A stretch of 62,860 nt of DNA, filler included, from Asterionella formosa (GCA_002256025.1; 24 parts of 24 records of this genome joined end to end with filler, not necessarily neighbours in it); one strand, 5' to 3'; shown: positions 4,446 to 59,697, counted from the whole stretch's first letter. A program made the numbers and translations. The notes: a model not told the origin generated them from the letters alone.

Positions 4446-4929
4446 CCCTTGTAATTTAAATAGTAATCCTTTTGACTATGTATATTTAATTATTATATGT
4501 ATTGTTTTTATTATATTCCTGTATTTGAATTTCTTGGTAGGATCATGTACCAGCTAGAGTAATGTAGTTTGGCTCGTCATTTCCATCTGTCATCACTCCG
4601 ATTTTTGTACCAACAACGAAATACCAGCAATGACAAGCAAGTGGAATGATTGTTTGCGATAACGTCTTCAACTTTTGGTCAAGTGATCATTCTATCTTTG
4701 AGCAATCGTCATGTGCAGTGAACCTTTGTTCATAATCATTCAATTAAAAGTTTACAGAGAAGAAATCATTCAAACTCGTAATAGTTTCGTACACAGCGCA
4801 AATAGTAAATCCGTTTCGTCGACCCCCAGCACTACAATCGCGCCAATCAACTCATAAACAAACACATTCTACTTGTTCTCGTTGACAATTTAAATTCTCA
4901 CATACTACATTTACAATTGAGATTCAGTT

Positions 4930-5420: not shown

Positions 5421-5509
5421 ATATTACAGGAGTGACTTAGCTACTAAAAGTGCATGTTATAATATCATACACCGTAGTACAATGCAGAATACAGTTCCCA
5501 ATCAACATT

Positions 5510-5925
5510 GAATCAGGGATAGTCCGATAATTGTACAATGATTCCAAAATGTACTTAAATATTCCAAGTAGTAATTGATGAAGAACCTCAAATGGAGTTG
5601 CACCAAATAATCCTTTTAAGTCACCACCAAAAATATGATTTATTAGTGCAGGCATAATAGGATTATGCGATATAGTGCGGCACCACTCGTTTGCTGTTGC
5701 ATATTTGCCATTAGATTTGGCGAAACCATACTACTCAGGTGGGATAGTACATGGTAATTTTCCATCGGGATATGCAGTTTTGTCAAGAAATTTGTTTAAA
5801 AACTTTTTAGCATCTGACACTTCACAACGTTCACATCCAATATCAGGATTATCAGCATCTTCAGTTGCAACCAGGCAATCACGACAAACATATCGTCGAT
5901 ATAATCAATAACTACCCCTGAATCC
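5510..5925 (-). pseudogene. Plavaka-like (CACTA/EnSpm-related) transposase internal fragment
   Basis: Minus-strand translation RYVCRDCLVATEDADNPDIGC...IFGGDLKGLFGATPFEVLHQLLLGIFKYIL matches the recalled CRxC..DNP and GATPxE/DxLH..LG..KY motifs; in-frame stop and truncation. Confidence 0.65.
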
Positions 5926-5927
5926 AC

Positions 5928-6370
5928 CTGTTTGTGATTGGAAATGCCTTTCATACTACTTGGACCAGAGACGGCGGGATGTTTGATTCTCTTTTGGGAC
6001 CAGAAAAAAGCACATTTGATTGATAATCTGTTTTACAGTGCCTGCAATTCACAAACTATAACCTCAAACTTACATGTTCACAGCAAAACTTCTTGGTCTT
6101 TAAAATAAGACTCACAAGCTTTGTGACAATTGATGGTTCAATTTTAGCTAAGCGGGAACGACGTTTTGATAAGGCTGCTGAAATTGAAGATTCTTGATAA
6201 TTTTGTATGGACGAGTTTTGAACCGAATTACGACCTTTGTAGTGATTGAGTTCATTGACCAATTGATAATATCCTTTGGCAAGTGAGAATGTTTTTAACC
6301 CTCAGTTTGTCATGTACATGTTGGTCCGTGTGATTAGAAAATTTATGATATGGTACCATGTTGTCCATTG
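5928..6370 (-). pseudogene. Fragment of repeated orphan gene ORF-X (full copy at 58067-59536)
   Basis: Near-identical to 58787-59225 (VNELNHYKGRNSVQNSSI..SSISAALS.RRSRLAKIEP); fused directly to the Plavaka-like fragment. Confidence 0.85.
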
Positions 6371-12334: not shown

Positions 12335-12340
12335 GGTGTG

Positions 12341-13816
12341 TTACACCTTAGCCTCCATATGACGTTTCTTGTCTAGGTAGGTATCATCGTTTTCGGTCCA
12401 TTCCTCCTGTAAGGTAGGCAAATCATTTTCATCAAAATACGCCTGAAAGCGTGATTCGTTGAAAATATTCTCCCAGTGTGCTGCGGGGTCATCTCCCTCT
12501 GGAATGGACATCACTGTAGAAAAGAAGTCATCGAACACCACATGAAATTGAGGTGATATACCTCCGGTCTTCAATTTTAGTACCAGGGGCACGTTGCTAC
12601 TGTGATTAGGGGACATTCCCACAAACAGAGCACGCCGAGATCTTGGTTCCCATCTGGGCAGTTTCATGCCATTTTGCATCTTTGGATCTAATACATAGGA
12701 CGGACAACCCCACACATGTAAATCCTTAAGACCATGCCTGGGTACTAGAGACCCAGTAAATATATCCATTGGTGACTGACCTGCTCGTATGCCTGGGACA
12801 TGCTTATAGACATGCGCAGCATAATCAACTGCCATAGGCCATAGCGTCGCATCAGCAGTTTCAGGCCATCTTATAGATGCATGTAGCATCATGACTTGTG
12901 CCATATTGGATACAGTGTGTTTGCTTCTTTCAGCAACACCGTTCTGGTGGTGTGCACCAACTCCACAGTATTTAACTTGTTGTCCTCGCGCAATAATTGC
13001 GTCAACAAACTCCTTAGCGCCGAATGTTCCGTTATCAGTCATATAGAATGCACCAAGAACACCGTGATTGTAAGCCCAATTCTCGAATTGCTGCTTTCCA
13101 GTGAGTGTTTCGGTTGCCGAAAATCCCACCTGATGGTGGACATAAAGAAGGCCTGATGCGTGATCCACAAAAATACAGCCCCCTTTATACATGCAAGAAT
13201 CTTGTGATTTTCCGCGCGAAGAATATTGTCGTCCGAGGACACGGGATTCAAAATGATCCACAGACACTCCTGAGCCTGGATATAGATCACCAGACTTTAC
13301 ATTTCCCTCCCTTTCAGGCGAAGGAATGCTGATTGCTGCTTTTAAAGGTTTTCTATGGGCCTTACCGTACTCACATGCTGCACACTTAGGTGCAGTGCAA
13401 CGGGCAGCTGCTCAACTCTTGAGATTGTTACCAAATGACAGTTGTCGTAACAACCACTGTATTGTAGCAGAGCCAAAATGTCCCAGTTTGTAGTGCCAAC
13501 GCAGATACTCCTTCTGTGCCTCTGTTAAATTCTGATTGCGGTCTTCGGTGATGCATAGATATAGGAACTCCTCTCGTTGGCCTGCAGTAGCAGAACGAAT
13601 TGCTCGACTTGTTGGCAAGTCATTGACTGGGTCATAGTAAATAGTTAAAGGTGGTTTACCGTCTATCAGTTGCTGGGCATAGTCATCCAGTATGACAAAC
13701 TGACTGGTAAAACCTTGTTCTTTAGAGAATATTTGTTGGGGTGATAGAAGATGCTGTGTACACTGAGGAGCATAGTATGCATTCAGATGCAGGGGCGGGG
13801 TGCAACAAACGTCCAT
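12341..13816 (-). pseudogene. Copia GAG-pre-integrase and integrase, disrupted
   Basis: LRWHYKLGH, SVDHFES, IFVDHASG, TDNGTF, GVGAHHQNGVAER, VWGCPSYVLDP, ISPQFHVVFDDFF. Confidence 0.92.
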
Positions 13817-14021
13817 CGTCAGATAGAAAAGTCCAGTGCACAGTGCCTATGCCTTCTACAGCAAGGTCTGAAGCAATCCCTCCCAGGCGTAATGGTGCCT
13901 TGGGAATTGATAACTCCCCAACAAAATCTCCCTTATATGCGCTTACGGGGCGTGTTGCCCCAGTATCCCAAATAACGGAGAAATGTTCATCTTTGTTGTT
14001 GAACATGTTGTTTGAATCCAT
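13722..14021 (-). pseudogene. Copia aspartic protease
   Basis: VIWDTGA motif, then L.GIA..L.VEGIGTV.W. Confidence 0.85.
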
Positions 14022-14174
14022 TTCATATGGTTTTATTTGTTCATTAGAACTTAATATATTTATTTCTGGTGTATATATTTCATGTAGTTTACTGTCGGTT
14101 TCATGTTAATGTGTACAGCCAACAGTGACGCATCGCTGCTGGCAGGCAACTCAGAAGGTACTAGTGAACCATGT

Positions 14175-14266
14175 GTGATCATCGTGGTCCTCATTACCCA
14201 ATTCATCATCGGAGTCACTTGTGATCATCGTGGTACTCATTACCCGATTCATCATCGGAGTCACTT
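14175..14266. repeat. 46-bp tandem duplication that ends the gag frame
   Basis: GTGATCATCGTGGT(C/A)CTCATTACCC(A/G)ATTCATCATCGGAGTCACTT at 14175-14220 and 14221-14266. Confidence 0.9.
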
Positions 14267-16110
14267 GCCTCACTAGTAGAATAGTAAATGCGACCAGACA
14301 AGACGACTGCACGGACTAAACTAATCTGTTCCACTTCCATCATTTCTGTGGATTCATCATCATGGACACCTGATTCACAATCAAAGAACACGTCACAGTC
14401 TTCGTCTGTACTAGAGAGGTAGCCTGTGGGGAGGATAGTAGTCCTATTTGGGCCCAATGGTGGCGGAATCACGCATGGGGATTTCAGACTGGCGTCGACT
14501 TGTTGAGCATGCAACAAATCACGGACAACATTTAACCATTCTACATTCTCTTCACTACTGGCAGCAACATATCCAAAAGGGGTCAAAACAAGTGTGGCGT
14601 CCTCCTCTGGTGCATCATCCACGTTGAGGACTGCATGAGCTAGACCTGCTACTGCACCCTGGTTTTTAGCTGGCTGGCTTCCTGTGTGGGTGGCTGTGGA
14701 GTGTGTAGTGGACCAACGGCCTTCCCCGCCACGACATTTCGCGCACCAATGCCATGTTTTTCCATCCCTATTAATTGTGTTAAGAGAACCATCAGTAGGA
14801 GGAATGTCCTTCCAGAAGCGTTTGGAATTCATCCTTTCTGGACCTGAGTCATTCTTCTTGAATTCACCTCCAGGCATATCATTTTCTGGACAGTTAGGCT
14901 TAATATGCCCCTTTTTCCCACACTTGTAACAAACAATGTCAGGAGAGTCTTTAATACTACCTAGATTCCTACACAGCAGCTTTAATTCCTCAAAGACTGC
15001 TGCTTGATAGGCATTGGGAAGGGCATCTGACTGCAACTTAGGTACTGTCTTCAGAGGTGGCCAGCGGTCATAATCAACTAGACGCTTAAAACTGGACATT
15101 GCCAACTCGCATAAGGACTTAACACCCAGAGAAGTACTCTGAAATGCCAGAATTGTCCCTTCATCCTTACCGTGTAGGGAGCGCTCTTCATCATCTACCT
15201 GTACAGACTTTGAATAGAATGGGGTTCTGAACTCTTCTACACTGCAACATAGAAACTTTGCAATGGCCACGCTTGAAATGGTAGCAGGCATGGCATTGCC
15301 ATGCTTCAGTAGATTATATGTTGCCTGAATGTCATTTATGAGCAAGTGGACATTTTCACAAGGATAGTTAGAAAGAGACAGATTAAGAAATTGTTCTAAT
15401 ATATTATCCATGCGTTGAGGTGAACCTGATGTCACCTCATCCATTAGTGCCATCCACAATAGTAGACCTGGACCCCAATCACCATATTCCTCCAGTCGCT
15501 CATATAAACCAGTAAGGATCTTGGGATCTACATGCAATTCAATTAACCTCCACAGGTGTGCTGAATCTTCTCTTGCTTGATTATCCCATACCTTTGCCTG
15601 GTTATGATATGATTCTTCTGTCTCTATTTCTGGATCATTAGGTAGAAACACTGGGACAGGTTCCACTTCTAAGCATTTGTCAATATAGAGTTTGACCTGT
15701 GCAAACTTGATCCTAGAGTGATTAGTGGCCATGTCCCACATCTCACCCTCTGCATCAGGAGCATAGAAAAAAGTGTCTACCCCCAGCATGGCTGCTTCCT
15801 TATGAATTACACGTTCCAATTCATACAAGGTATAGTCCTTAGTAGGATCCCCAGTGGGACCCTATAGAGCTTGCGCCTCTCTTTGGTACAGTAGTCGAAT
15901 AGGCTACGAACTTCCTTGGTATCTCCTGTACGTAGCTGATACGGAGAAAACATTGGAGACATTTCAGTAATAAAATGACGATCCAAACTGCCCCCAGAAT
16001 AGCGAAGTCCTTCTGGGGTGACGTGTCCAAATTTAGTTGCCTGCAACATGATGTTGTACCAGGTACCTTGCCGATGGTATGTGTAGGTGGTACCCCGGTG
16101 TACTTGCGAG
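14215..16110 (-). pseudogene. Copia gag with CCHC zinc knuckle; 5' part frameshifted
   Basis: CYKCGKKGHIKPNC and TWHWCAKC..GRWSTTHSTATH (CoDi-like second Cys/His motif) in ORF 14215-15828; upstream part lies in ORF 15807-16049. Confidence 0.88.
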
Positions 16111-16249
16111 GTTTGTACTTAAAGGGCGACCTTAACACCAGACTGTGCTGAAGCTCTGTACACACGCACCCAAAAAAGGAAAGAACAGAATAAAAAAAGA
16201 AAGACCACGTGCATTGGACACGATATCGAACCTAGTGTCTGGTTCTTAT

Positions 16250-16650
16250 ACTGGCGGGGTTCGCTTGGTACGGTTATACAGTTGAAGTCTTGAACAGGTA
16301 TGCAGGCTGTACCGGCAGCTGTCTTCGCGTGACGCACAGTACCAGTACTAGGTACCACCGTACTGTTAAGCTGTTGTACTTGTGGGGTTCGCTTTGTACA
16401 GTACCAGGTACTTGCTACTGCCGTAGTGTAAGCTGTTGTACTTGCGGGGTTCGCTTTGTACCTGAGTAGCAAAGAAGTGTAGATTAGTATGGTAGGTGCG
16501 ATCATGGTTGGTAGATGGTATCGTCGATGTAGTTGTGACTTGTGTCTTGTTCAAGCTGTAGGTGTCGTCGCTTCGGGCACAGTACCACTGCAGCGTAGGT
16601 TGTTGTACTTGCGGGGTTCGCTTTGTACCTGAGTAGCAAAGAAGTGTTGA
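16250..16650. repeat. Internal repeats in the copia 5' leader
   Basis: TTGTACTTG(C/T)GGGGTTCGCTTTGTAC at about 16375, 16436 and 16603; shorter copy near 16255. Confidence 0.85.
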
Positions 16651-17636
16651 CTCTTTGCTCCCACAATTTTCGGTGTGAAACAACCAAACAACCAACTTGT
16701 TGTAAACCTTTAGCTGTATTGGGCTTCAATAACCAGTCAGAAATCAACTTGGTGAGTATTATGAGTAAGGAGTACAATTTACGATTTTAATATTCTGTTG
16801 ACAATCTTAGTAGTTTCACTTATGTGTTTTCTAAAAGAGTGAGCTTAAACTAAATGTAATTTTGAAATTCAGTTTCGATTGAAACATGGCAACTCCTACA
16901 TGTTTCTGAAATGAATTTGTTCTTTGTTCCTTGGAGGCGAGGTTCTTCGTAGTTCCTACAGCTGTAGCAAAGTAGATTACATCGCCTCCTCTTCCTTGTT
17001 GTAACATATATATCCATCTAGCTAGCCTAGATAGATTCTAGGACATAAATGTTCCTCTACTGAGATACTTTTCAGGTATCTGCAATATGATGATTGGATT
17101 GTTCCTCAATCCTTTAATAGGATGATTCGATTGTTCTTCAATGCTCTAGACAGAACTGATTTGTCTCTCCAATCATTCCTTGTTTAGGGTTTACCAAGTT
17201 TGTTTGGTAAACATAGGGAAAACTTGATAGAATTCGCCCTTCAACATTGTTCTTTATCAAATGTCTGAAGGTTATCAACCTTGGTATTTAATTGTGCGTT
17301 GTTCCATCAAACACAACGACTAGTAGGGAAATGTTGTCTTCACACAAAGTGGAGACCTAGCTAACTGGGAATCAGGAATCAAGAATTCTTCTGTGTTGCA
17401 ACTTCTACTCACTAAAGAAATTGATTCTCGACGTATTGGATTCCATATATATTTATGAGTGTGGTACTGGACTACCGGTATATATAATATGATATACCGG
17501 TATGTCCCATTCGACAATTCTTAACACCAATCAAGCCTGGCGTGGCCGATCCATCTCGCACTATATCTATGGGACTTCGTTAGATTATTAAACACACAAG
17601 CAAATCTAGAGCAGCGAGACTATATTACTACAAGCA

Positions 17637-19049: not shown

Positions 19050-19760
19050 GATCTACTAACCCATTGTCAAATGGTATACCATCTGTCATAAAAGATCTCA
19101 GTAAAACTGATAGTGTACATGACAATTCTTCTTCAGTTTTTGATACCAGAAACGTTCCTCCTATTTGATATTACACTTTTATAATTCCCAAATGCAGCCT
19201 GGTGGTCTGGTCCAAGTAGTTCATAAGGCATTTCAAGCACAAAGAAGTTTGGTTCTCCCTATGTTGCCGAAATGTGCTTTATGCAGCGAGATCAGAGTTA
19301 GACAAGAAGCAGAAGTGGCACTCAACTTCCAAACTTCAAATGGAATGGATTTGATTATCACTCCATTGAATGTACCAAGCAACAAGGCACATTTAGAATG
19401 TATCAAATCCAAATTTGGTGGCATGTGCATTAACAAAGAAATGAGAGAACATCAAAATAAACTGAATAACCATCTAAGGCAATATTAGGTATATTACAAT
19501 GAGAAGCTTACAACAGTTGCCAGTGATTTTCTATCAAAATTTTTCGACTCAAATATACTAACAAATTTTCCAATAAATTCCTTGGTCTTAAAGTGTATTA
19601 TAACAAGACTATAGATTCTGTCGCTTTTCTTTGTTTGGCATACAAATTTGATGGATTGGCGCAGTGATCAAGGGACAACAAATATTCCCAAGAGGAACAT
19701 CAAATTCACTGAATGCGGTTATCACTGGAGTATAGATGATGACATTGATTTAGATTTAAA
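19050..19760 (+). pseudogene. Old diverged copy of ORF-X
   Basis: LVQVVHKAF...HLECIKSKFGGMCINKEMREHQNKLNN aligns with RLDYIKSTFGGMCIKKLRECQNVLNN at 58481-58816. Confidence 0.75.
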
Positions 19761-21960: not shown

Positions 21961-22398
21961 CGCTGGCTGTGATTGCAACTCTCAAGATATGCACTTATAT
22001 TGGCTATGAAAGCATGTATCAAAAATAAATGCTTCATACCATAAAGATATCAATCCATTTGCCTCTCAGATCTATGAAACAAAAAATAATATTTCCTCAA
22101 TTGCATGATGATTACTGATAACCAGCAGAACCTCTTTTGAATGTCTTGAGCATCTGCAATGATGATTTCAGTGTGTAGTCATACTAATCGATCGAACGTA
22201 CGGGTTACATACGACTGTATCGGGTAGCCGGGTACCAGTATTTAGTATTCCTGTGGGATTACAAGGACACACCATGACACGACAACTACCTACATAAAAA
22301 AAGATAATAGGACTTGTCCGATTTAAATCAACAAAGCAAATCAGCATTTGCATTTGTTGCATCATTTTGCATTAAGTTAGTCTCCTCGCACCTTGACG

Positions 22399-23856
22399 AT
22401 GCCAAAGAAGCGTGTGTCGTACTTCTACCACCCTGAGGTGGGTCACTTCTATTACGGACCATCGCATCCAATGAAGCCTCATAGGTTGAAGTTGGCGCAT
22501 CATCTGGTGCTGTCGTATGGCCTCTACAAAGATATGGACTGTTATCGACCGCACCCAGCTAGTTTGGGCGAACTGACTCAATTCCATTCCGAAGAATACA
22601 TAAATTTCATGGCTAAGATCACGCCTGACAATCTACGCCAGTATCACACTCAAATGCAGAGATTCAATGCCGGGGAATACACTGATTGTCCGGTCTTTGA
22701 CGGCCTATCGGAGTTTACTTCCTTGTACACAGGAGCCTCCCTGGATGGAGCAGTTCAGTTGGCACAGGGACAAGCAGATATCGCCATCAACTGGAGTGGT
22801 GGTCTGCATCACGCAAAGAAAAGCGAAGCAAGTGGATTTTGTTACATCAATGATATTGTCCTGGCGATCCTGGAGCTATTAAAGGTTCACGCTCGCGTCT
22901 TGTATATTGATATCGACGTTCATCATGGTAAGCCAGAGTCTTGATCAATAGCAAGCTATCGCAGGTGCAGTTACTGTTCCAATCTGTTCAACCTTCTCTT
23001 ATCATTCGATACACAATCACTGCAGGTGACGGAGTCGAAGAAGCATTTTACTGCACTGATCGAGTGATGACGTTCAGTTTGCACAAATATGGTGATTTTT
23101 TCCCTGGTACAGGTCACTCCTCTGACATTGGCGCCAAGGAAGGAACAGGATTTAGCGTCAATGCTCCTCTTACAAGTGGAATCACAGACCAAAGCTACAG
23201 AGAAATATTCCAACCCATCATGTCCAAAATCATGGAAGTCTACCAACCAGGGGCCATTGTTTTACAGTGTGGAGCCGATTCTTTGACTGGTGATCGCCTT
23301 GGTTGCTTCAATATGACCCTTCATGGACATGCAGAATGTGTTTCCTTCGTCAAGACCTTTGGTCGTCCTGTTTTGGTTCTCGGTGGTGGGGGATACACCA
23401 TTCGAAATGTGGCGCGATGCTGGGCTTATGAAACTTCAGTTGTTCTAGACAAGGAGATTTCAAATGATATCCCTTTCAATGACTACTATGAATATTACGC
23501 GCCGGACTTTGAGCTACATTTGACTCCAGAAAATGTGGAAAATTTGAATACTCGGGAGTAAGTGATTTTTTTTTGCTGCATTGCTAAGGGCAGGAGGCGT
23601 GGCCCGTTTGTTGCTGACTATTCCTCGCGTTCACAGATCCCTCGACGCAATCAAAGTGGAATTATTACAACAACTTCAAAATTTGCAAGGCGCACCATCA
23701 GTTCAAATGCAGGAAGTGCCTCCTTTATTTCGCGTCCACGACAAGGAAGAAAACGATGGTGGCCCAGAGGATGATGAGCGCCCCACAAACAAGACTCGCC
23801 ATGGGGATGGCGACAAGCGAGCTCACGAAGCTGAATTTTACGACGAGGTCGATTGA
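22399..23856 (+). CDS. HDAC3: Class I histone deacetylase, HDAC3/HDA9-like; exons 22399-22927, 23026-23557, 23637-23856
   Basis: [51 protein letters not shown] and C-terminal EFYD. GT-AG introns 22928-23025 and 23558-23636 restore the frame. Confidence 0.93.
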
Positions 23857-23866
23857 GGCACATTAA

Positions 23867-24643
23867 TTATTCTCTTGGGGCTTCCCGATTTGGAAATAGC
23901 AAGACTTGGTTTTGATAAAGTTCCTGTAGTTGATCGAAACCACGATCTAGTAGTATGGCTTTGTTGTGTCCAGCAATAGCCGAAGTTGCTTCCACTCCGG
24001 CTTTTTCAATGACAAATCTAGAAACAACCGAAACGGTAGGATAAGGTGATTTCTTTTCAAATGATAGTTCAGCCTCGTCGTCTTGAAAAAGCCAATCGGG
24101 ATGGAATGGAGCCAGCGTCACTTCATCGAAAGAACTATCAATAAAGGCTTCTTCTAAATCAAGAAACCAACCATAAAACGACCCGAATTCCCAATACTCA
24201 GTGGTAACAATAAAGGAAATCGCTAAATTTGCATCCACTTCACCAGATTTTATCGCTGCTATCAAGTTGCTCGATGCATCTTCCACGGCGCTCTGCATAT
24301 CATGCGCTCGGTCTACAAGATACACTTTGACGCCGCCTTGAGATTTCACCGAAGCAGCTGCCCACGGACACAGATTCAGTGGTACCACGAAGTTGGTGCA
24401 CCATCTCCATGTTTCTTCAGTAGCAGGTGGAGGGGAATCTTGTGAGCCCCAGTTGCCTGTGTCGTCTACCTTAACGAATATAACTGGATTTTTGGGACGA
24501 TCATCTGCATAAGGCGATTTTGAGAGACGAGCAGTCGTGCGGTGTGATGGAAAAGCCATGGGAGGTGATGAAATCCATCCGTGACTTTTCCCGACAAGAA
24601 GAACGAAGAGGAGAGGTAGATTTATGGCCATGACCCTGACCAT
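23867..24643 (-). CDS. DUF1415-family protein, probably plastid-targeted
   Basis: FVVPLNLCPWA, LAPFHP and SPYP motifs; signal peptide ending SHG followed by W-ISS and a Ser/Thr/Arg-rich transit-like region (ASAFAP-type). Confidence 0.8.
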   Translation of the reverse strand: MVRVMAINLPLLFVLLVGKSHGWISSPPMAFPSHRTTARLSKSPYADDRPKNPVIFVKVDDTGNWGSQDSPPPATEETWRWCTNFVVPLNLCPWAAASVKSQGGVKVYLVDRAHDMQSAVEDASSNLIAAIKSGEVDANLAISFIVTTEYWEFGSFYGWFLDLEEAFIDSSFDEVTLAPFHPDWLFQDDEAELSFEKKSPYPTVSVVSRFVIEKAGVEATSAIAGHNKAILLDRGFDQLQELYQNQVLLFPNREAPRE

Positions 24644-24894
24644 GATTCAATGCTACTGAACTGTCCGACTTTGATGTCAGCAGCAGGATTTCCTTGGCTC
24701 CCACTACTGTACATACAACAGTTTGATGTTCGTCGTCGGCATTGTTTAATTCTCGGCTCTGTTGGAGAAATTATTTTAGGAAAGAAAATCCCGGTATGAA
24801 TTACCTACTACATATTGAATCGAATGAATCAAGAAAGAATATGGTACCAGAGAATTCGAAAACAATCTACTGGTACATCAACATTATTGACGAA

Positions 24895-27107: not shown

Positions 27108-27147
27108 GGTACCAGGTACCAGGTACCAGGTACCAGGTACCAGGTAC
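27108..27147. repeat. (GGTACCA)n heptamer microsatellite
   Basis: About 5.7 perfect copies; degenerate clusters elsewhere in the window. Confidence 0.95.
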
Positions 27148-27377
27148 TCCGTACCAATTAAAACGGTCTGCTTACATAGATACTGGTATTACACGGCTGG
27201 ACCGGGTTTCATCGATTTTTATTTACTGAATTATTGTTGACAAGGTTATGGATAAGACACAAAATGCGAGAAATTTATATTCATTGTTGAGATAATCCGT
27301 GCTTTTCACTTTTTTTTCCTATCGCCACTTTTGACCTAAATTAACGAAAGATCGACGTCCAATCGGTTGAGAACTAA

Positions 27378-28537
27378 GAGCATCGCCACCGCATCGACCA
27401 AATACCAATCCAATTGAAGTTGCGGGTCATTACACGTCATGATGCGTTGTGTTGGTCGAAAAAGCAAAAATATTTTAGCCACTGCATCGACCAAGACCAA
27501 ATATGCTTTGGTCTCGATCGAGGATGACCCCCTTATCGACCAAATATCAGGTATTTGGTCGATTAGACTCCGACCATAGCCAAATAAAAGGAGTATTTCT
27601 ATTGGTTTAGATTGTGGCTCGCGCCAGCAACCTAACGTTTATAGTTCAATGAGTGCATACATAATTACAGTACATTCACTATTGTCTCTTCATGTACTAG
27701 AACTCTATAGGCCAATGTGATCTTGGTGTGGTGTATACATCATATTGAGTCAACATCATAAAACAACAATCATCATTGTCAGGATGGGTTCCGGTGTCAC
27801 GTGGGAGAAGGAAGAGGACGAAGCACTCTCTCGGGCCTGGGTAGCTGCAAGTGAAGACGCAATCACTGGGACTGGTCAGAAAGCAAGCAAGTTTTGGAGC
27901 AGGGTATTCGAGATTTATGTTGAGCTTATCCCAGATGGGAAGGATCGCACCTCAACAGCGTGCACTGCTCGATGGGGAACAATCAATCAAGATGTGACAA
28001 AGTTTTGCGGCCTCTATTCACAGGTTACGTCCATTGCTAAGTCAGGATGGACAGACGACAACTATCTTGAAGAAGCCAGGGAACTATTTAAATTAGAGGG
28101 AAAAGGAAGGAAAATGGGTAGAGAATTCCTGTTCGAAGGGTGTTGGCGAATTTTGAAGGATGCCCCAAAGTGGAAGGGTGGGTGTGGATATGTCCGAGAT
28201 CAGCAGCAAATCGCAAAGAAGAGTCCTGAGTTACTAGATGTGCGTCCCATGGGGACGAAAGCAGCAAAAGATAGTAAGCTGCTCGCAAATGCTCAGCTTG
28301 TCATTGAACAAAAACACGTGCAGATGTTGGAAAGAAAGGTGAAGACGCAACGTGATGAATTTTTGTTTAAGATTTTCTCTCTTAATATTAATTCAGAGGA
28401 AGCTAAAAGGTGGTTTGCTATGAAGGCTCAAGAAGCTATGGAGGAGATGGAGGATAGTTCAAAACCATCACGCAAAAAAACAAAGACCGGTTCTTTGGAG
28501 TCAGGCAGTTCAGTTGAAATAGATATTTCAACTTCTC
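27378..28537 (+). mobile_element. PIF/Harbinger transposon end with Myb/SANT (NAM-associated) gene, CDS 27784 to contig end
   Basis: TAA then GAGCATCGCCA TIR-like start; subterminal CGACCAA repeats; protein W..EEDEALSRAW..ASED.I.GTGQK..KFW.R, RW..I..DV.KF, F.FE.CWRILKD.PKW, RPMG.KAAK. Confidence 0.8.
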
Positions 28538-28689
28538 NNNNNNNNNNNNNNNNNNNNNNNNNNNNNNNNNNNNNNNNNNNNTTAATTAATTAANNNNNNN
28601 NNNNNNNNNNNNNNNNNNNNNNNNNNNNNNNNNNNNNGCCAGTTAAATTCATAAAAGCAATATTATGATAACTACCGGGTAGGTATGCC

Positions 28690-29040
28690 AGAACATATGG
28701 TGTTCTGTTGCTCGCTTATTACTCCGACTATTGGTTTTTTGTTTTACGATCATACAATCCTGGAACTATGATGATTTACTGTCCCACGGTAGTAGCAACA
28801 ATCCTGAATATATGGTGTTCTATTGGTTTTTAGTTTTATGATCATACGATCCGAAAAATATGATGATTTACTGTCCCGCTGCAATAGCAGTAGTCATAGA
28901 CATTTCGTGTTCTATTGGTTTTTAGTTTTACGATCATACGATCCTAAAACTATGATGATTTACTGTCCCACTGCAGTAGCAACAGTCCTGAACATATGGT
29001 GTTCTGTTGTTAGTTTACCGGTACTACTCCGACTACCCCC
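28690..29040. repeat. ~88-bp minisatellite array (about 3.5 units); same unit at 31648-31812
   Basis: Unit ATGGTGTTCTATTGGTTTTTAGTTTTACGATCATAC(A/G)ATCCTAAAACTATGATGATTTACTGTCCC..G.AGTAGCA.CA.TC. Confidence 0.9.
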
Positions 29041-29458
29041 AGTATATCACTTACTACCTGCTACTGGTACCCTGTATGTATAAATGATACATTGTTATTG
29101 TCATATGATGTACCGTTACACATGAAGAGCTCCCGCCCAAAAAAGGGGCATTTGAACGGTCTAAATAATTAGTTTCGACGGACGTAGAAAATATCGATGC
29201 AAACAAATTTCAGAAACAATTCCGCTACACGTAGTCGTGGAAAACAATGGACATCTAGTGCATTGAGTATTTTCGAATTATGTATATGCGAGTATGGCCA
29301 TCTCAACCATATCAGATGTTCCATATCGAGAGCGCCTTTGAATTTTATAAAATGTATTACGCTATATATATATATATTTACAAATTTTATTACTATATTC
29401 ATGGCATATATATTTTTCAAATCGTTCTGTCACGTTAACAATCAATGCTTGCTGCTTC

Positions 29459-30175
29459 ATGAAAAGATACGTCGTAGTAAAGGACATGACAAGCAAAGAA
29501 AGTTTACGCAATAAATAACGAAAAACATTGTGACTTCGAAACATTGCGCCTTCGAAGGATGGAGAATGTTTAAGGTAATGAAGCCATCAATGTGGTACTT
29601 GGATGACAATCGTTGAGAGGCAGGCAGCACAACAACAAATTGTTAACTAAACGCAGCCACATTTCCTTTTTTCTCAGTTGATTCAACAGCTCGTTTCGCT
29701 TGTTGGGGAGCACCAATGTAAAACAAAACCAAACCAAATTGCGTAAGTGCTCTTGTCGCTCTTTGGACCTATTCACTTCTGTTGGAACAACGCTGACAAA
29801 ACGTTTACCTTCTCTCAAAGTTAAGATGACAAAAATGTACCGGTAAGTTTTATTCAACAACATTGGATACCTGAAACTTACTTATGCATCAGTTGCATTG
29901 TGTTGTGGTAAGTGAAGCAAGAGGATACGATGGAATTGCGTGTCGTTGTTTCAATGTAACATGACTACTTGCTAACAAATCATTCCTTCTCATTGTTTCT
30001 GTAACTGCATAGGTTGCTGCAATGTCAATTGAATCCTCGACTCAAATGAAAGAACTCTGCAATACATTTGAATGGTGAGTTTGTTCTTGTTGTGTACTTA
30101 AATGCTAGTATGGCTTGTCAGCTCACGCATTGTTGTTGACAACAGGCAGGGACAATGAGGTCCGGAATGAACTGT
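29459..30175 (+). pseudogene. Micro-exon orphan gene, 5' part; exons 29459-29574, 29690-29742, 29826-29842, 29893-29907, 30013-30074, 30150-contig end
   Basis: Donors GTAATG, GTAAGT x3 and GTGAGT with AG acceptors give one frame: MKRYVVVKDMTSKESLRNK*RKTL*LRNIAPSKDGECLSSFRLLGSTNVKQNQTKLHDKNVPLHCVVVAAMSIESSTQMKELCNTFEWDNEVRNEL. Both stops can be explained by C-to-T changes. Confidence 0.6.
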
Positions 30176-30275
30176 NNNNNNNNNNNNNNNNNNNNNNNNN
30201 NNNNNNNNNNNNNNNNNNNTTAATTAATTAANNNNNNNNNNNNNNNNNNNNNNNNNNNNNNNNNNNNNNNNNNNN

Positions 30276-31044
30276 CCACCAGTGATTAGGGTACGAAACG
30301 ACCTGGGGAAGGCAAAAACTCCAAGTACCGCTAGTATCCCTCCCACAGCCTCATCAATTAGCGATCTTTCGGGCACTTCACCAGCAACTGAAAGAAGCAG
30401 CATTCCCTTAAGAAATCCAATTCGTGTTGATGGTTCTTTCCCACGGCCACCCAATGTGGCCTCGCTACCAACAAGGGAAGGAAATGTGACACCATCAGAA
30501 AATGAACTTAATGGAATGTCAGGAAGTTCTATTAAAAGCTTATCGAATCGCTCACAAAGTTCGACTAAAACACCAACTACTTTGAACCAGGTGCAAGTTA
30601 ACTGGAAATCATCGTTGGACAAGGATTTTATGAATTGTAAGCGCCAAGGGATGGCTATTCTGGTTATGGAAGCCATGACAAAACGTAAGGAACGTCATTA
30701 CCTGACAGTTCCCAAAGAACACCAAGAGATGTTAAAGGCAAACAACAACTATAAAGCATTCTACCAGATGACTATGGAGGATCTCCATGACAGTGACATT
30801 CCTGAGTATAGGCGACTCGATAAAAAAAGATTCAAGAAATATTTCATTGAGTGCTATGCTGAGACATCGGGCAATTTCTCTGCTTAATATAAGGGAACGA
30901 GCTTGCCATACTGAGGAGCTGAACAGAAGATATGCTGCTGCAAGAGAAGAAAATGTTCATCTACCTTATGAACATTACCTTACTACGGGTAGTAGTGTTC
31001 GGAGAAATATGATGCAGTTTGAAGGAGAAATGGAAGAGATCTAA
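30276..31044 (+). CDS. 3' part of unknown Ser/Pro-rich protein with one frameshift near 30880
   Basis: Open from contig start to 30887, continued by the overlapping frame ending 31044; no family recognised. Confidence 0.45.
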
Positions 31045-31257
31045 CCGTAACACATTTACCTAGCTGTTAGTAAATGATAACTAATTTCGTATCTATGAAA
31101 CAATGCATTTGCATAGGCTGTTATTTCTATATATATCCAACGTCTGCGCGTCCTGCCAATATCTACTCATTACCTCAATCGTTTCGACTGGTGGCATCGA
31201 GTAAAACATTTGCGAGAACAAATGGATCGATGGGATATTGATCACAAACAGGAAGAA

Positions 31258-31595
31258 ACATTCATGACAACCATGTCAGATCCGTTCCATTGCAAATCTT
31301 CCTTCAATAGGTCAAACTCGTCATCCTTGAGCTTGCCTTCCAGTGGCATAGTAGGACTGAAGCGCGTCCAGAAAGATACGCTCCTTTTCGGCTACTGTGA
31401 GACGAATGAGTTCCCCACTTTCCGGATCGACGACACAGTATTCCTCGTCAGGAATGCATTCTTCTTCCTGCAAGTTAGTCTCAAAGAATCGTCTTGACTT
31501 GGCGTCGTAAGCGATTTCTCTCGTTCCGCTCGTAATGGTGATCTTTTCGTCGCTTCCTTCTTCGGCCATTAAAAGTGGACCAGCAACACGACCAG
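31258..31595 (-). pseudogene. PGRL1: Truncated, frameshifted PGR5-like 1 fragment
   Basis: EECIPDEEYCVVD..LIRLTVAEKERIFLDALQSYYATGRQ, then after a frameshift LKDDEFDLLKEDLQWNGSDMVVMN; resembles the PGRL1 FL.ALQ.FY..G....EFD.LKE.L.W.GS motif. Confidence 0.8.
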
Positions 31596-31912
31596 CTGTT
31601 GTCGTTGTCTTCCTTAAAGTTCGATGATCTTAAATTCATTTACCGGTACTGTCCCGCTGTAGTAGCAGCAGTCATAGACATATGTATATGGTGTTCTATT
31701 TATACAATCCTAAAACTATGATGACTTACTATGGTGTTCTATTGCTTGCTTATTACTCCGACTACCGGTACCGCTTTTCAGTTTCACGATCATACAATCC
31801 TAAAACTATGATNNNNNNNNNNNNNNNNNNNNNNNNNNNNNNNNNNNNNNNNNNNNTTAATTAATTAANNNNNNNNNNNNNNNNNNNNNNNNNNNNNNNN
31901 NNNNNNNNNNNN

Positions 31913-33867: not shown

Positions 33868-35085
33868 TGTTGAATATATGAGCTTATTAATTAATCCTTA
33901 TGTATAACTCATTTCCTGAACTGACATCAAAGTATAGAATGGGTGTTAGTCGAGTTCTCTCATTATTGAATTCCGATATATTTGACATAACCCCAACTCT
34001 ATATATATCTGTATCGATGTGCAGGATTGCTCACTCTCCCACACTTGAGGGAAAACCTTTTACCTATGAAAAGGTTTGATACGACGAATATTAATTCGTT
34101 CGGTAATATACATAGTGCGTTGAAAAGTAACTGTACCATTGGCATGTACTTGAATAATAGTATAAGGACCTCGTCCACGATCATCCAAAGTAGTAGGATT
34201 ATCCAATAATATTAAAATCTCGTCACCCACTTTGTAATCATAAGATCGACGACGGAAATTTGCACGACGTAAACGTTCGTCAATTATTACCTGTCGACGT
34301 TGATGTATTAATTGTAAATCTGTAATCAAAGGAATATTTAATATCATATCACGTTGGAAAACCCATGCTCCTGGTGAAATACGTAATATACTATGAATAG
34401 TAGCTCGAGCTGCATATGACGCAGCTGCAAAACATGTATCCACAATATTTTGGGCTTGAAATTCATTGATTGGAGGATGAGCCTTTAACATAACTCGTAG
34501 ACTATTGCTGATAGATTGATGGAAACGTTCACAGATAGCATTTGCTTGTGGATTCTTTACTGTGGTAGTCACATCTTTGATTCCATTCAATACTAACATG
34601 TGTAAGAAAGGAGCACCAGTAAATTCACCTCCATTGTCATGTATACAACGTTCTGGACGGGGATATCTGGCTAACCAATCATTTTCAAATTTCATTGCAA
34701 TATATTCTGATGTTTTATTGATGATACGTGAAATTTCTGCTAAATTGGTGACTGTGTCAATACAAGTTAGAGCACGAAATTCAATCGTTTGAGCAGCCAC
34801 TGTTATCTTCCATGGACCAATTAGATCTACTGCGACTTCTGACCATGGTAATAATAATGCATTCCTGGGTGGAAGTTCACCAAAACCAGTACCAGGTAAT
34901 TTTGTACGTTGACATGCTTCACATACTCTTACAATATGTTCCACTCTTGTTTTTAATATAGGGTGATAAAAATGTGTAGCAATTGTAGCATTTAATCTTG
35001 TCATACCCACATGAGCTAACATCTGATGATACCAATTAATAATAGGATCCAATAATGATGTAGGAATAGCAATACGCCAAGTATC
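33868..35085 (-). mobile_element. Ty3/gypsy integrase (intact frame 34060-35085), PPT and probable 3' LTR (about 33868-34033)
   Basis: WYHQMLAH.G..CEACQ (H2C2), AVDLIGPW, IHDNGGEF, NPQANAICER; GGGAGAG then TGAG...CAACA. Confidence 0.92.
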
Positions 35086-35185: not shown

Positions 35186-36721
35186 GAGCCACTCAATCTG
35201 TCTGGCAAAGAGGCAGCGTGAAGAGGCAAGGAATTGTTACCCTTGTAGCCATCAGACCATGAGCTTGCGGTTCCGTCGTCATTCGTATCATCTCTCAACA
35301 TTATTGCGTTCCCTGTTGTCGACTGTAGAGCAACCCCTTCTAAGATATCTGCAGTATCTTGATCGAAGTCCCAAGATTGACCCTCGCTCATATCGATTCG
35401 CATGCTATTACCATTGACTGAGTCAACGACCCTACTTTTCAATTCAGCTTCTGCCGAGAACGAATTCACATCATGGCAAAGATCGGGTGACCTATCATGG
35501 TCGTTTGAAAAATCTAAATGTTGGGCACACCTGCTGCGGCTATAGGAATGATCGTCTGGGTCAACTGATCTCCTCGGTAACAATTCACCACGAGAGTCAA
35601 ATGAGCGCGCATCGGATCGATGACTATGACCACTATAAACCGAGCGATCACCGGTGGTGACCATGGGACTCCTTGACAATGGAGCACCATTGGAGTCGAT
35701 CGAAATGTCGTCGGAACAATGGCTCCTCGAGCTGACAATGGAGCGATCCGATGTGCCTTCTGGTCTCTTCTGATCTTGACCGATGAAGGAATCGGCAGAA
35801 TTCTCGTTCTTGTCAGAGCGATAACTACCAATGGAGTATGCTGCATCGCTTGCAGCAGCCGCACTCCTCGGAAGTGGCTCGCTGTCCCTCTCGACAGAGT
35901 GATCGCAAGATTGATTACTTTCGTTATTCAATGAATGATCTCTATCGAACGCACTATGACGAGAACCGGCATTACTTTCTGGCGATGACTCTTTGTTTGA
36001 AGAATATTTCGAGGATCTGACAGAACCTGTGGAGTCCCGGTCCTTTGCAACATCCGTCAAAGCTACGGAGGCGTCCAATACATTTGATCGATTTCCCCCA
36101 CTATGGTCGGTCCGATAATCAGAGCGATTCTCAGAGTCTGATCGGAACGTCCGTGGTGAACCATTGGTATCCATAGTATGGTCGCCTGACAGGTAGCTCC
36201 TTGTATAGGAGGAATGATGACCGCTGTCGTCTCGTCTACTGAGCAATGATTGGTTGAAAGGATCCAAGGAGCGCTCATTTGATCGATAGCTGCTGCTGCG
36301 GCTATAGGAATGATCGTCTGGGTCAACTGATCTCCTCGGTAACAATTCACCACGAGAGTCAAATGAGCGCGCATCGGATCGATGACTATGACCACTATAA
36401 ACCGAGCGATCACCGGTGGTGACCATGGGACTCCTTGACAATGGAGCACCATTGGAGTCGATCGAAATGTCGTCGGAACAATGGCTCCTCGAGCTGACAA
36501 TGGAGCGATCCGATGTGCCTTCTGGTCTCTTCTGATCTTGACCGATGAAGGAATCGGCAGAATTCTCGTTCTTGTCAGAGCGATAACTACCAATGGAGTA
36601 TGCTGCATCGCTTGCAGCAGCCGCACTCCTCGGAAGTGGCTCGCTGTCCCTCTCGACAGAGTGATCGCAAGATTGATTACTTTCGTTATTCAATGAATGA
36701 TCTCTATCGAACGCACTATGA
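35186..36721 (-). CDS. Internal part of a Ser/Asp/Arg/His-rich repetitive protein (254-aa repeat period)
   Basis: Frame open across the whole contig; 35531-35959 appears identical to 36293-36721 (offset 762 bp, in frame). Confidence 0.75.
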
Positions 36722-46636: not shown

Positions 46637-47150
46637 ATGTTGATTACTAATTCAACAACCGGTATTTCACATTACATGGGAAACAAATCTCGATATGCAA
46701 TCAAACAAAGCTGTTCTATCAGAATGGAATCTTCAGTCTTGAGAAGGCAGGCATTATGAGACATCTGTAAGGAAATTGCAAGACAAGGAGAAGCCATTCA
46801 TTCAGAAGGGGGAAATTATTCACTCTTGAACAGGCATCATTCTACGAAGTTGCAACATGAATGCATCCTCACATACTGATTTCCTTCTTGTACTTGAAAT
46901 GACTTCTTCATTGACCTGCAGAGATTTTCATAACAAGAGTGTGTCAGTAATGTATATGATAGAACTAGCAACAGCAGAAAGCAACACACAGTTCATTCTG
47001 GACCTCATTGTCCCTGCCTGTTGTCAACAACCATGCGTGAGCTGACAAGCCATACTAGCATTTAGGTAAACAACAAGAACACACTCACCATTCAACTGTA
47101 TTGCAGAGTTCTTTTATTTGAGTCGAGGATTCAATTGACATTGTAGCAAA
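46637..47150 (-). pseudogene. Second copy of the micro-exon gene, extending it 3'
   Basis: Reverse complement matches 30013-30175 including intron 5 sequence, then continues with another probable intron ending CTCTGCAG. Confidence 0.8.
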
Positions 47151-48271
47151 CCCTTTCAATTCAGGAGCATTCGGATGAAATACAGGATTGAATATTGTTG
47201 CTTTCTGATTCTGTGTTAATGTCATATGATAACAGGGCTCCGTAAATCATGAGTTGTTAGTGTGCCTTGGCGTGCTGTTTGTCATGCTGCCAGCTGCTGC
47301 TGTATTTTTACTGAATTATTGAACAACTGGCACATAAAGATTCGCATAGTCATTCAATAATTCATTATAAATACTCCCTTCCTCCCTTGTCTTCTTGTTC
47401 ATCAACCTTGTTGATCTCTCTTGTCCCCTCCTTCACTGCACTATTTGTCTAACCATGGTTGGTGCAGACTTTCAAAAGAAATTCCTCATGTGTTTTGACA
47501 AAAGCCAGTAGCTCAATCCAAAAGTAATGTCAATAGGCTGCCATCGACACAGGAAACAAAGGCTCATACTGATAAGCCTCAGTCCCCTTACCAGGAATTG
47601 AATATTTCCTGCCATATTCTATTGGATCACCTGTAGTTGACAAAACACAAGCAACAGCAGATGTGGTGATACTATCAAATTTCGTTTTCGATTTCGTTTC
47701 TTTCAAATTGTCAAGGGACGCTAGCGTCTGCAAATAAAAACTATCATATTTCCATGATGCATCATAGGATTGTGATCATCTGATCATAATTTTTGGTTAG
47801 ATCATCTAATAATTTTGATAAATGACACAAACCTCGACAAAAGCACTAGTACCTTGTAGATGTTCATGAAAAGCGAGACACTTTGCTTGGCCTATCGCCC
47901 ACCAGCCAGTCTATACTGCAAAAATGCAAGAAGCACAAGTTGAATGCCCATTTATGGATTCAAGTTTCAGTAGTGCAACAATATTAAATATTAGAAACCG
48001 GAAGTCACATTTCATCTAATTACGGTTTTCATTAGCTATACATCTAAGCCGCGTATTACGTGAAGTGACCATCACATAAATAAGCCTAGTTGATTTTGAA
48101 TGCATCACATGAATAAGTTGAATACATCAAAATACGTAGTTGAAAATATCTATGTATTATCTGAATACATCNNNNNNNNNNNNNNNNNNNNNNNNNNNNN
48201 NNNNNNNNNNNNNNNTTAATTAATTAANNNNNNNNNNNNNNNNNNNNNNNNNNNNNNNNNNNNNNNNNNNN

Positions 48272-58066: not shown

Positions 58067-59536
58067 TTTCATGGGTATCTGGATTGAAACCCAAATATTT
58101 TTGTTGTAATCGGAATTTTCCTTTCAGCACCAAGAAGCAAAATGCTTCTGTACTGGCATTGATCAGCGAACCAACAAAACGTGTTTGCAATTCACACTGT
58201 GCCCGAAGACTGAGTTGAAATTTGGTCACACCAGATTTGTCTCCTGTTAAAAATGGTTCTCCACGGCTTGTCCTGCCTATAAAATACACCGGAGCAAGAA
58301 CATCACGCCAGACTTGGTATCCATGGCTTCCCCTGTCAATGTCCTTTGACTGCGCAAAACGATAAAGCGTCAACGCCCACCTAATAAAGTCATCAATATC
58401 CATAGTCTGGAAGTTATATTCCGTTAAACCAGCTGGTGTGTCATGAATTATGGCAGCAAACATATTTGATAAGAATATAATCACCAAATCAAAACATCAT
58501 GCTCGGTGTTTTGATCTCCCTGCAAATTACCTAAGATTCCTTTAAATTGATTATTCAATACATTCTGACATTCTCTTAACTTTTTAATGCACATGCCACC
58601 AAATGTTGATTTGATGTAATCTAAACGTGCCTTGTTGGTACGTTCAATGGTCTGATTCATTGGAAGTAGTGCATCAGAACCATTCCATATGAAATCGGCA
58701 AGCTCTGGGTCACTCTCCACTTCTTTGCCTGACTCCGGTTTCACTGTGTATAGCCGAGTTAGGCAAGCAACATTCGGCAAACCAATCCTGTTTGTGATTG
58801 GAAATGCCTTTTTCATACTACTTGGACCAGATAGGGCGGGATGTTTGATTCTCTTTTGGGAACAGAAAAAAGCACATTTGATTGATATTCTGTTTTACTA
58901 TACTACCTGCAATTCACAAACTATAACATCAAACTTACATGTTCTTGGTCTTGAATATAAAACTCACAACCTTTGTGACAATTGATGGATTGGTTCAATT
59001 TTAGCTAAGCGAGAACGACGTTCTGATAAGGCTGCTGAAATTGAAGAGTCTTGATAACCTCGTATGGACGAGTTTTGAACCGAATTACGACCTTTGTAGT
59101 GATTGAGTTCATTGACCAATTGATAATATCCTTTGGCAAGTACAAAATGTTTTTCCCTCAGGTTGTCATGTACTTGTTGGTCTGTGCGATTAGAAAATTT
59201 ATGATATGGTACCATGTCATCCATCTGCATCCGGGAGTTATTAATGTCATCATCGACAGGAGCCATTTTTCTTGTATCAACAACTGAAGTAGAAACGTCA
59301 TCATTGCTGTCAGTATCAATTACGGGATCCTTTGTACTAGTAGCTGATGGTGTCCCCATCGACGATGGGGTATTACCTCCAACATCTCCCAATCGCCGAT
59401 TGGGTTGCTTTGGATAATCGCCTATTCGCTTTTTCTTTGTAAACTCATTTTGGAACTTGCTTCTTTGTTCAATACCGGCAGTATTTGCCACATGTCGCTT
59501 GTTTCCATGAACCTCTTTATGGTTTCTTGAAGACAT
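58067..59536 (-). pseudogene. Repeated orphan gene ORF-X (about 470 codons visible), frameshifted, probable intron 58967-58907
   Basis: Consecutive ORFs 58964-59536, 58481-58816 and 58011-58487; a GTGAGT...TGCAG intron is also seen in the 6040-6115 copy; three copies in the window. Confidence 0.7.
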
Positions 59537-59697
59537 TGTACTACTTGATAACTGTTGTCGTTGTCTTCCTTAAAGTTCGATGATCTTAAAATCATTTNNN
59601 NNNNNNNNNNNNNNNNNNNNNNNNNNNNNNNNNNNNNNNNNTTAATTAATTAANNNNNNNNNNNNNNNNNNNNNNNNNNNNNNNNNNNNNNNNNNNN

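Follow-up and report, generated by a model that had tools for sequence, protein, structure and literature searches.

The window analysed here, a 62,860-nucleotide (nt) stretch of DNA from the diatom Asterionella formosa (GCA_002256025.1), holds the scattered pieces of what we believe, with a probability of about 0.72, to be a single multi-copy, cut-and-paste DNA transposon of the Plavaka lineage, related to EnSpm/CACTA. Reading the proposed unit from one end, a gene for a Plavaka-type DDE transposase would be preceded upstream, on the same strand, by a second gene ('ORF-X'; ORF, open reading frame) and then by a leader of 43–46 nt; beyond this would lie one to three units of a 92-base-pair (bp) repeat rich in dyad symmetry, followed by ~1.2 kb of oppositely transcribed, spliced sequence (two of its exons measuring 22 and 28 nt) and, at the far end, by short subterminal repeats with a candidate terminus. 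What we observe is the order and orientation of these components, the family to which the transposase belongs, the fact of splicing and the presence of many copies, and the ORF-X/transposase side and the spliced unit diverge from the repeat. In the mechanism that we propose, the transposase would move the unit, ORF-X would serve as the element's accessory protein—its role like that of En/Spm TnpA or of the accessory genes of a red-algal Plavaka, perhaps binding the 92-bp repeat—and the region between the two divergent units would hold the putative promoters of both.

The window is a composite, made up of one 25,261-bp piece and 23 contigs (1531–1538 bp, in descending size) held together by 23 spacers of exactly 100 nt each, of the form N/TTAATTAATTAA/N (runs of N around TTAATTAATTAA). 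A sequence-only reading of this DNA had placed its proposed element at positions 28638–31812, linking the parts by shared sequence and not by adjacency across spacers; that range spans two separate and unrelated contigs, contig 4 (28638–30175) and contig 5 (30276–31812), and since a 100-bp linker separates them their adjacency is artificial. The 5′ part of ORF-X lies elsewhere again, on contig 22 (58067–59597), as does a distal copy of the spliced unit on contig 15 (46637–48171). All of the junctions of interest fall at contig ends, as expected if a short-read assembly broke at repeats, which is also how we account for the scattering of the components over short contigs. An assembly artefact, with repeats common to short contigs by coincidence or by way of chimeric joins, would be in keeping with the artificial concatenation and with the position of every junction of interest; four independent metagenome contigs, from other assemblies, nevertheless present the same order of components, and contigs from RNA libraries cross the junction between the 92-bp repeat and its flank. 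We find such an artefact scarcely credible overall, and for the component order it is already refuted, unless the outside contigs are similar chimeras.

The linkage itself is seen outside the window. With a 22-nt word of the leader as the query, we retrieved six metagenome loci (L001–L006), which were compared by blastn and tblastn; the most complete of our comparisons comes from L006, 5.4 kb of a 10.8-kb metagenome contig. On one strand of L006 a transposase-like ORF (417→1) and ORF-X (3006→1103; 95.6% identical to 58067–59597) are followed by the leader and the repeat (3031–3219), the wider region 3031–4426 being 88.7% alike to 28866–30175; further on, 4265–4777 is 98.6% identical to 47149–46637, and 5004–5135 is 93.9% identical to 48171–48040. 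ORF-X, leader and repeat recur together in L003 and L005, and also in L004, where ORF-X has an internal deletion and a counterpart of 29149–29406 is present as well (76–90% identity). L001 has ORF-X with the leader, and L002 corresponds to contig 5. The claim that the components keep a fixed order and orientation thus holds on independent metagenome contigs (L003–L006).

We also compared contig 4 with the contigs of one DNA run (X1) and three RNA runs (X6, X7 and X11). In X1, 179,631 short contigs match contig 4 at ≥90%, and depth runs to millions in all 30 bins, so that the whole of contig 4 belongs to a very high-copy, diverged family. This multi-copy state includes defective and internally deleted derivatives; the copies in the window are themselves all defective, being either cut by a contig end and frameshifted, an internal-deletion derivative, or an old remnant.

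The transposase is represented in the window by a fragment, which directly abuts a piece of ORF-X:

5440..5916, minus strand: fragment of a Plavaka-family transposase, the C-terminal end of the catalytic domain, with one in-frame TAG
5927..6368, minus strand: ORF-X fragment (442 bp), consisting of the end of block 1, an intron and the start of block 2

Taking 5440–5904 (minus strand, the TAG read as X) as the HMMER query, we retain 83 relatives at E ≤ 0.001, 21 of them at ≤1e-10. The Plavaka domain of Pfam, PF18759, is found in 15 of the 21 long relatives scanned (E ≤ 0.001; 12 above the curated cut-off) and in none of the other six. The fragment aligns to the end of this domain (by tblastn, residues 558–675 of the relative P0029 fall at 5916–5506) and carries an R-x-C...DNP...C pattern that is invariant in 13 relatives, the catalytic D, D and E residues and the H motif falling outside 5440–5916. 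The label 'Plavaka-like' is therefore borne out, by way of these relatives. They also match L005 2877–3272 and L006 417–1, through the region just before the domain (E down to 3.5e-10); aligned by hhalign to 13 relatives, the L006 ORF scores a probability of 97.5% (E = 7.6e-12) at an equal distance from the N-terminus, and opens with Met and a C-x2-C-x3-F pattern, like the N-termini of those 13 proteins. An ORF-X copy had been described as fused to the transposase fragment, and the two indeed stand side by side on the same strand; 5440–6368 is an internal-deletion derivative, in which block 2 of ORF-X has been joined to the end of the transposase domain.

Two further stretches of ORF-X are present:

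58067..59536, minus strand: 5′ 1.47 kb of ORF-X, cut by the contig end; three ORF blocks and two predicted GT–AG introns
19206..19504, plus strand: old, diverged fragment of ORF-X block 2, ~300 bp, 69.8% identical to 58831–58515

In L006 the three blocks are open over 218, 130 and 276 codons, and the predicted GT–AG introns would keep the frame between them, giving an overall size of ~550 codons. The stop codon of ORF-X in L006 is kept in P0121, a relative of 49% identity, and the transposase ORF starts ~310 nt downstream on the same strand; the presence of this stop, together with the Met and N-terminal pattern of the transposase ~310 nt further on, indicates two tandem protein genes. That ORF-X might encode the N-terminus of the transposase was considered and discarded: the three blocks reach at best E = 0.034 by blastp against the 83 relatives and a probability of 0.06–0.16% by hhalign against 13 long ones, and the transposase has its own Met at the position of its relatives' N-terminus. 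In contig 22 the ORF-X start codon is at 59536, 15 nt past the leader, and the sequence (58067–59536) is 94–96% identical to L001, L003, L005 and L006; its ORFs are of 201, 137 and 143 amino acids, a 5-nt insertion at 58993 and other indels having shifted the frame relative to L005 and L006, and we regard this copy as defective for that reason. The 442-bp fragment is 88.7% identical to 58787–59224 (self-blastn) and 91–95% identical to L001, L003, L005 and L006, and the ~300-bp fragment reaches 46–52% at the protein level. What had been counted as three copies of ORF-X thus comes down to one 5′ part cut by a contig end and two fragments, one of them strongly diverged.

That ORF-X is an orphan, in contrast, is confirmed, in the sense that it falls into no known family. 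No Pfam domain is matched, a profile search of the PDB finds no relative (best E = 0.36), and the best score of a search of the Atlas (0.81) is at chance level; a word-based protein search also found no longer relatives, although this is weak evidence. Block 3 has 57 short metagenome relatives (56–100% identity), several of which are frameshifted. AlphaFold models of ORF-X reach a predicted local distance difference test score (pLDDT) of 32.0 without an alignment and of 48.8 with 52 close relatives. The ORF-X stretch is present in 20 runs from 13 studies, eight of the runs being RNA libraries; these eight contain 36–62% of the sampled ORF-X words, which fits expression without proving it.

Between ORF-X and the spliced unit lie the leader and the repeat, each present in the window in more than one place:

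28638..28689, strand not assigned: left flank of the repeat in contig 4, 52 nt, outside the ORF-X/repeat unit
28690..29016, plus strand: 92-bp repeat block, ~3 units, each with dyad-symmetric motifs
31596..31641, minus strand: shared leader, its minus-strand reading ending in CAG at 31596
31647..31812, plus strand: degenerate 92-bp repeat units, cut by the contig end; 76–92% to 28696–28964 by blastn
59552..59597, minus strand: copy of the leader upstream of ORF-X, at the contig end; found by blastn to 31596–31641

The sequence-only reading had noted a common leader, lying also just upstream of the start of ORF-X, and this is confirmed: the two copies are 97.8% identical over 46 bp (E = 7e-15, self-blastn), and 43 nt of the leader are common to L001 and L003–L006. 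The array upstream of the spliced unit is likewise real (28728–29009; 3.1 copies, 82% matches, score 417 by TRF), with a period of 92 bp and not the ~88 bp originally given, and the second array, beside the leader in contig 5, is recovered by self-blastn in the form of degenerate units (28696–28772 against 31730–31812, 82%; 28869–28964 against 31647–31730, 76%). Inverted repeats occur within the units, for example the 13-nt arms at 28923–28935 and 28940–28952, which are 92% complementary. The number of units varies, from ~3 in contig 4 and ~2 in L006 to ~1 in L003–L005, and the spacing from leader to repeat is ~150 nt in three of the five informative copies (L003–L005); the 92-bp repeat is not, then, a fixed array.

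The flank to the left of the repeat in contig 4 (28638–28689) has no counterpart in L006 but is 100% identical to L002 2710–2761, which lies ~130 nt upstream of another gene and 1.34 kb to the left of the sequence equivalent to contig 5. The flank/repeat junction at 28689/28690 is the one crossed by RNA-library contigs (X7 and X11), and the 52-nt identity between contig 4 and L002 suggests a deletion allele, a second repeat junction or an overlap in the assembly graph. Two other observations concern the repeat. An RNA contig that follows the 92-bp unit over 28919–28968 departs from it at 28968 with the same 28 letters in X6, X7 and X11, letters that have no match within the window; the shared departure indicates that another abundant transcript contains part of a repeat unit. 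Short repeats of the GGTACC type recur at 27108–27156, at 53802–53947 and in the flanks of the 92-bp repeat, and, as other copies of the 92-bp repeat are also followed by such letters, both may be members of one family.

On the far side of the repeat, the RNA contigs define a spliced unit that had been proposed as a 'micro-exon gene':

29017..29561, plus strand: spacer from the repeat to the first RNA-covered exon, part of the same high-copy family
29562..29742, plus strand: first RNA-covered exon, with X6, X7 and X11 contigs covering 29562–29734
29743..29820, plus strand: intron A, 78 nt, GT..AG, from X6 and X11 RNA contigs
29821..29842, plus strand: micro-exon of 22 nt, containing an ATG, from intron A and the joint 29842→29880 (X6, X11)
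29843..29879, plus strand: remnant of intron B, lacking, relative to L006, 42 nt that include the AG acceptor
29880..29907, plus strand: second micro-exon, 28 nt, its 3′ end predicted from GTAAG at 29908
30013..30074, plus strand: exon with acceptor 30012/30013, at a junction between family variants, from the X7 joint and X1 divergence
30075..30145, plus strand: intron C, 71 nt, GT..AG, from the joint 30073→30145 (cut +1) in X7 and X11
30146..30175, plus strand: first part of the following exon, truncated by the contig end, with the highest RNA depth; its continuation is in L006 and at 46987–46637
46637..47149, minus strand: distal copy of the spliced unit, truncated at the 30013/30014 junction, 98.6% to L006 4265–4777

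The spacer is 95.6% identical to L006 over 527 aligned bases, and L004 matches 29149–29406 at 87%. For intron A, the GTAAGT donor at 29743 is conserved in L006, and loose ends before 29821 carry the last letters of the upstream exon (three contigs in X6, two in X11). L006 has 42 extra nt, ending in CAG, right before the next exon; their loss from contig 4 explains the odd GT..TT ends of intron B, and makes the next exon one of 28 nt, into which the X6 and X11 RNA contigs run for 21–22 letters from 29880 and whose donor at 29908 is again conserved in L006. A joint in X7 links 29743 to the letters that follow 30013 in most genomic copies, and 137 X1 DNA contigs diverge behind 30013; use of the 30012/30013 acceptor in the commoner family variant is thus supported. 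Positions 29938–30041 lack RNA cover, which we do not count as evidence of absence.

The canonical GT–AG introns and the exons of 22 and 28 nt are therefore upheld by RNA contigs; a convincing reading frame is not. Followed by eye across 29821–29842, 29880–29907, 30013–30074 and 30146 onward, the frame meets a stop after 39 codons, and in the contig 15 copy it ends after 21 codons from that copy's own ATG; the exons (95.5–100% identical to L006) are no better kept than the introns (96–97%). With an ORF of 39 codons through the RNA-supported exons, we speak of a spliced RNA unit rather than of a demonstrated protein gene. No Rfam family is found in the window at gathering scores, nor in L006 or L002 at E ≤ 1. 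What had been reported as another copy of the gene amounts, within the window, to 162 bp (30014–30175 against 47149–46988, 95%, self-blastn), a match that an outside contig extends to 46637. Taken as a whole, the proposal of a multi-gene, intron-containing mobile element was mostly correct in what it observed, and its reconstruction stands in order, orientation and introns; the micro-exon unit as a protein gene finds no support.

The far end of the unit is marked by one further feature:

48040..48171, minus strand: candidate terminal 132 nt, 93.9% to L006 5004–5135, similarity stopping at 48040

The similarity between L006 and contig 15 ends at L006 5135, equivalent to 48040, and the flanks beyond differ. 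The candidate terminus lies ~2.1 kb from the leader, with 22-nt subterminal tandem motifs at L006 4884–5080. Downstream of the deletion derivative on the 25-kb piece, 3261–3470 and 4345–4445 share 87–91% with segments in 47724–48031; these lie in the 890-nt stretch that separates the candidate terminus from the truncated copy in contig 15, and are further repeated DNA.

These boundaries bear on whether there is one element or two. The shared sequence starts at an identical base (CTGTTG.., 31596) beside ORF-X, in five loci and in contig 22, and beside a homolog of PGRL1 (PGR5-like protein 1), in contig 5 and L002. The left boundary could therefore be the end of an abundant, non-autonomous module of ~2.1 kb (leader, repeat, spliced RNA, terminus), lying beside or inside a rarer Plavaka with ORF-X and transposase and carried along with it; the 179,631 X1 contigs that match contig 4 would suit such a module, as would contig 15, where the terminal 132 nt and a 5′-truncated distal part occur without ORF-X. 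Against this, copies that are 5–25% apart, L004 included, retain the ORF-X/leader/repeat junction, from which it follows that ORF-X and the leader/repeat have multiplied together. A Plavaka end 15 nt upstream of the ORF-X start codon would moreover leave no room for a promoter, the module's candidate ends show no inverted-repeat relationship to one another, and the rarity of the Plavaka half is presumed. We consider two elements unlikely, though worth keeping in mind.

A non-mobile, duplicated cluster of host genes, with ORF-X and the spliced unit as ordinary diatom genes that share a promoter region, would account for the ORF-X words in RNA runs, for the canonical introns and for the lack of ends or target-site duplications among our findings. 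It sits badly with the Plavaka-family transposase gene directly downstream, with the many diverged and frameshifted copies, with the internal-deletion derivative and with the extreme number of variant contigs, and seems to us very improbable.

A number of observations nevertheless weigh against the single Plavaka-type element that we prefer. A Pfam scan of the transposase fragment alone (reads of 97 and 155 amino acids) gives no match, which leaves the 'Plavaka-like' label right but indirect; the transposase beside ORF-X is seen to ~265 residues, before the domain, so that its catalytic domain is one we infer. ORF-X is without a detectable fold or family, making its role a guess, and because DNA may contaminate RNA libraries the RNA contigs cannot prove its transcription. 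The candidate terminus is based on two copies, and its sequence (..GATGT) fits neither published type of Plavaka end; we found no pair of terminal inverted repeats and no target-site duplication, with one candidate end seen and no complete copy. Finally, a simple one-element model leaves two junctions unexplained: the same leader/repeat boundary beside PGRL1 without ORF-X, and the repeat beside the unrelated 52-nt flank of contig 4.

The sequence-only reading had not recognised this architecture from described families, but elements of this kind are on record. As set out in a report on fungi (PMC12730594), Plavaka elements (PlavakaA/B) form an EnSpm-related 'CMCT' clade with C(2)C and H(3-4)H motifs; termini are TGT..ACA with a 2-bp target-site duplication (type A) or CATCA..TGATG with one of 2–3 bp (type B), those of the wider clade being 5′-CA..TG-3′, and some families carry TET/JBP dioxygenase accessory genes. 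Our element resembles the fungal ones in a transposase that its relatives place in the PF18759 family, in a putative C-x2-C motif in the catalytic region and in having a presumed accessory gene beside the transposase, and differs in its diatom host, in an ORF-X without known domain, and in a candidate end (..GATGT) that is neither TGT..ACA nor CATCA..TGATG, with no target-site duplication seen. A giant Plavaka of the red alga Bostrychia is described in a preprint (bioRxiv 10.1101/2025.02.11.637652) with three accessory genes, PAG1–3 (their domains being N6-adenine methylase/SET and ParB-like plus 2OG oxygenase, and the function of PAG1 unknown), and with tandem arrays of inverted repeats beside one of them. 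The likeness extends to a multi-gene make-up, a dyad-symmetric tandem repeat beside an accessory gene, high copy number and mostly degenerate copies, whereas the repeat here is short (1–3 units) and a divergent spliced RNA unit is present; comparing with the PAGs by domain content, as given there, we find no methylase, SET, ParB or 2OG-oxygenase Pfam domain in ORF-X or in the neighbouring ORFs. With accessory genes described in fungi, and three of them with tandem arrays in a red alga, the architecture seen here is of a described kind. It differs from the described Plavaka elements in its diatom host, its orphan accessory gene, its short 92-bp repeat and its divergent spliced RNA.

The comparison can be widened to En/Spm (CACTA) of maize, which makes two proteins from one transcript by alternative splicing and has repeats at its ends. 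A transposase with a poorly conserved second protein, short subterminal repeats and internal-deletion derivatives are common to both; here, unlike in En/Spm, two ORFs lie in tandem, and the 92-bp repeat is found inside the element, at ~2.1 kb from its candidate end. A full-text literature search, the scope of which did not include Repbase or Dfam, returned no description of a Plavaka or CACTA element in a diatom, and to our knowledge diatom DNA transposons are poorly described.

The junction with PGRL1, a photosynthesis gene, is the most interesting loose end. Two genes are present on contig 5, the second of them beginning at the leader:

30276..31063, plus strand: last exon of an unrelated multi-exon gene of no known family, its ORFs 99% to L002
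31242..31595, minus strand: exon of a PGRL1 homolog, ATG at 31569, beginning at the leader boundary

The gene at 30276–31063 has no Pfam match; ORF-X as its paralog was tried and discarded, neither blastp (E = 0.018 over 43 residues) nor hhalign (0.9%) being significant. Among 514 candidates, 294 proved to be relatives of the minus-strand ORF of contig 5; those that carry names are diatom proteins of 60–74% identity, among them a 'PGR5-like protein 1A' of Seminavis, and on this ground too the window is of diatom origin. Its ATG is 26 nt past the leader, and the frame is shifted near 31332, where L002 (98.5% identical) remains in frame. One mRNA-type relative, P0272, begins with a 37-residue presequence and matches the genome from 31596 on, its residues 38–150 being 100% identical to L002; a tblastn search of the window and the six metagenome loci did not recover the exon for the presequence. 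The presequence itself is of normal plastid type. A second mRNA-type relative, P0274, has the leader itself and, ahead of it, 17 residues whose code is at 31197–31144, downstream in the same PGRL1 gene; the join is made without GT–AG and could be a chimeric contig, a duplication or a back-join.

The CAG that closes the minus-strand reading of the leader allows two interpretations of it, as the end (3′) of an intron or as the trace of an insertion allele. We can tentatively picture leader and repeat as a portable gene front end with a working CAG 3′ splice site, and hence intron gain by, or promoter donation to, PGRL1 from a Plavaka-type element, although on the sequences at hand we hold this to be improbable. 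In the transposon the distance from the CAG to the start codon of ORF-X would be 15 nt; in the host the module would end exactly where the PGRL1 mRNA leaves its presequence exon, the fragment either forming the 3′ part of a new PGRL1 intron or supplying a promoter and first intron. A PGRL1 allele free of the insertion would explain the P0272 data equally well as would a transposon-derived intron, and we observe no donor side, upstream exon or splice junction at the PGRL1 leader. Introner elements of algae are transposon-derived introns, and the segment is like them in ending in CAG where the canonical PGRL1 mRNA starts to match the genome; unlike them, it appears to be a fragment of a large, autonomous-type element and not a small, dedicated introner.

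Other features occur elsewhere in the window. The 25-kb piece contains two ordinary host genes, one for a histone deacetylase (22381–23561, plus strand, divided between two reading frames with E = 4.8e-39 and 2.6e-42) and one for a DUF1415 protein (23867–24646, minus strand). A Copia-type retrotransposon occupies 9240–16725 (minus strand), its long ORFs encoding RVT_2, a retroviral SH3-like domain and a CCHC zinc knuckle, and integrase and Pol beta-barrel domains of long-terminal-repeat (LTR) retroelements occur on two small contigs (34063–35085 and 61330–62859, both minus strand). An ORF at 27721–28536 (plus strand) gives a weak match to the NAM-associated C-terminal domain (E = 1.2e-4, under the Pfam cut-off). 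A direct repeat of 429 bp, 100% identical (35531–35959 and 36293–36721), is found inside a single 1.5-kb contig which, apart from the repeat, is a single long ORF on the minus strand; an overlap in the assembly or a tandem duplication may account for it.

No new kind of mobile element is revealed by this analysis. It offers instead an explanation, in a repeat element, for the shattering of the assembly into 1.5-kb contigs at these repeats, and a detailed case of a Plavaka-type element with several genes in a stramenopile alga, complete with a putative orphan accessory protein that can be tested; the PGRL1 junction, for its part, provides a concrete case in which to ask whether such elements donate splice sites or promoters to the genes of their host.

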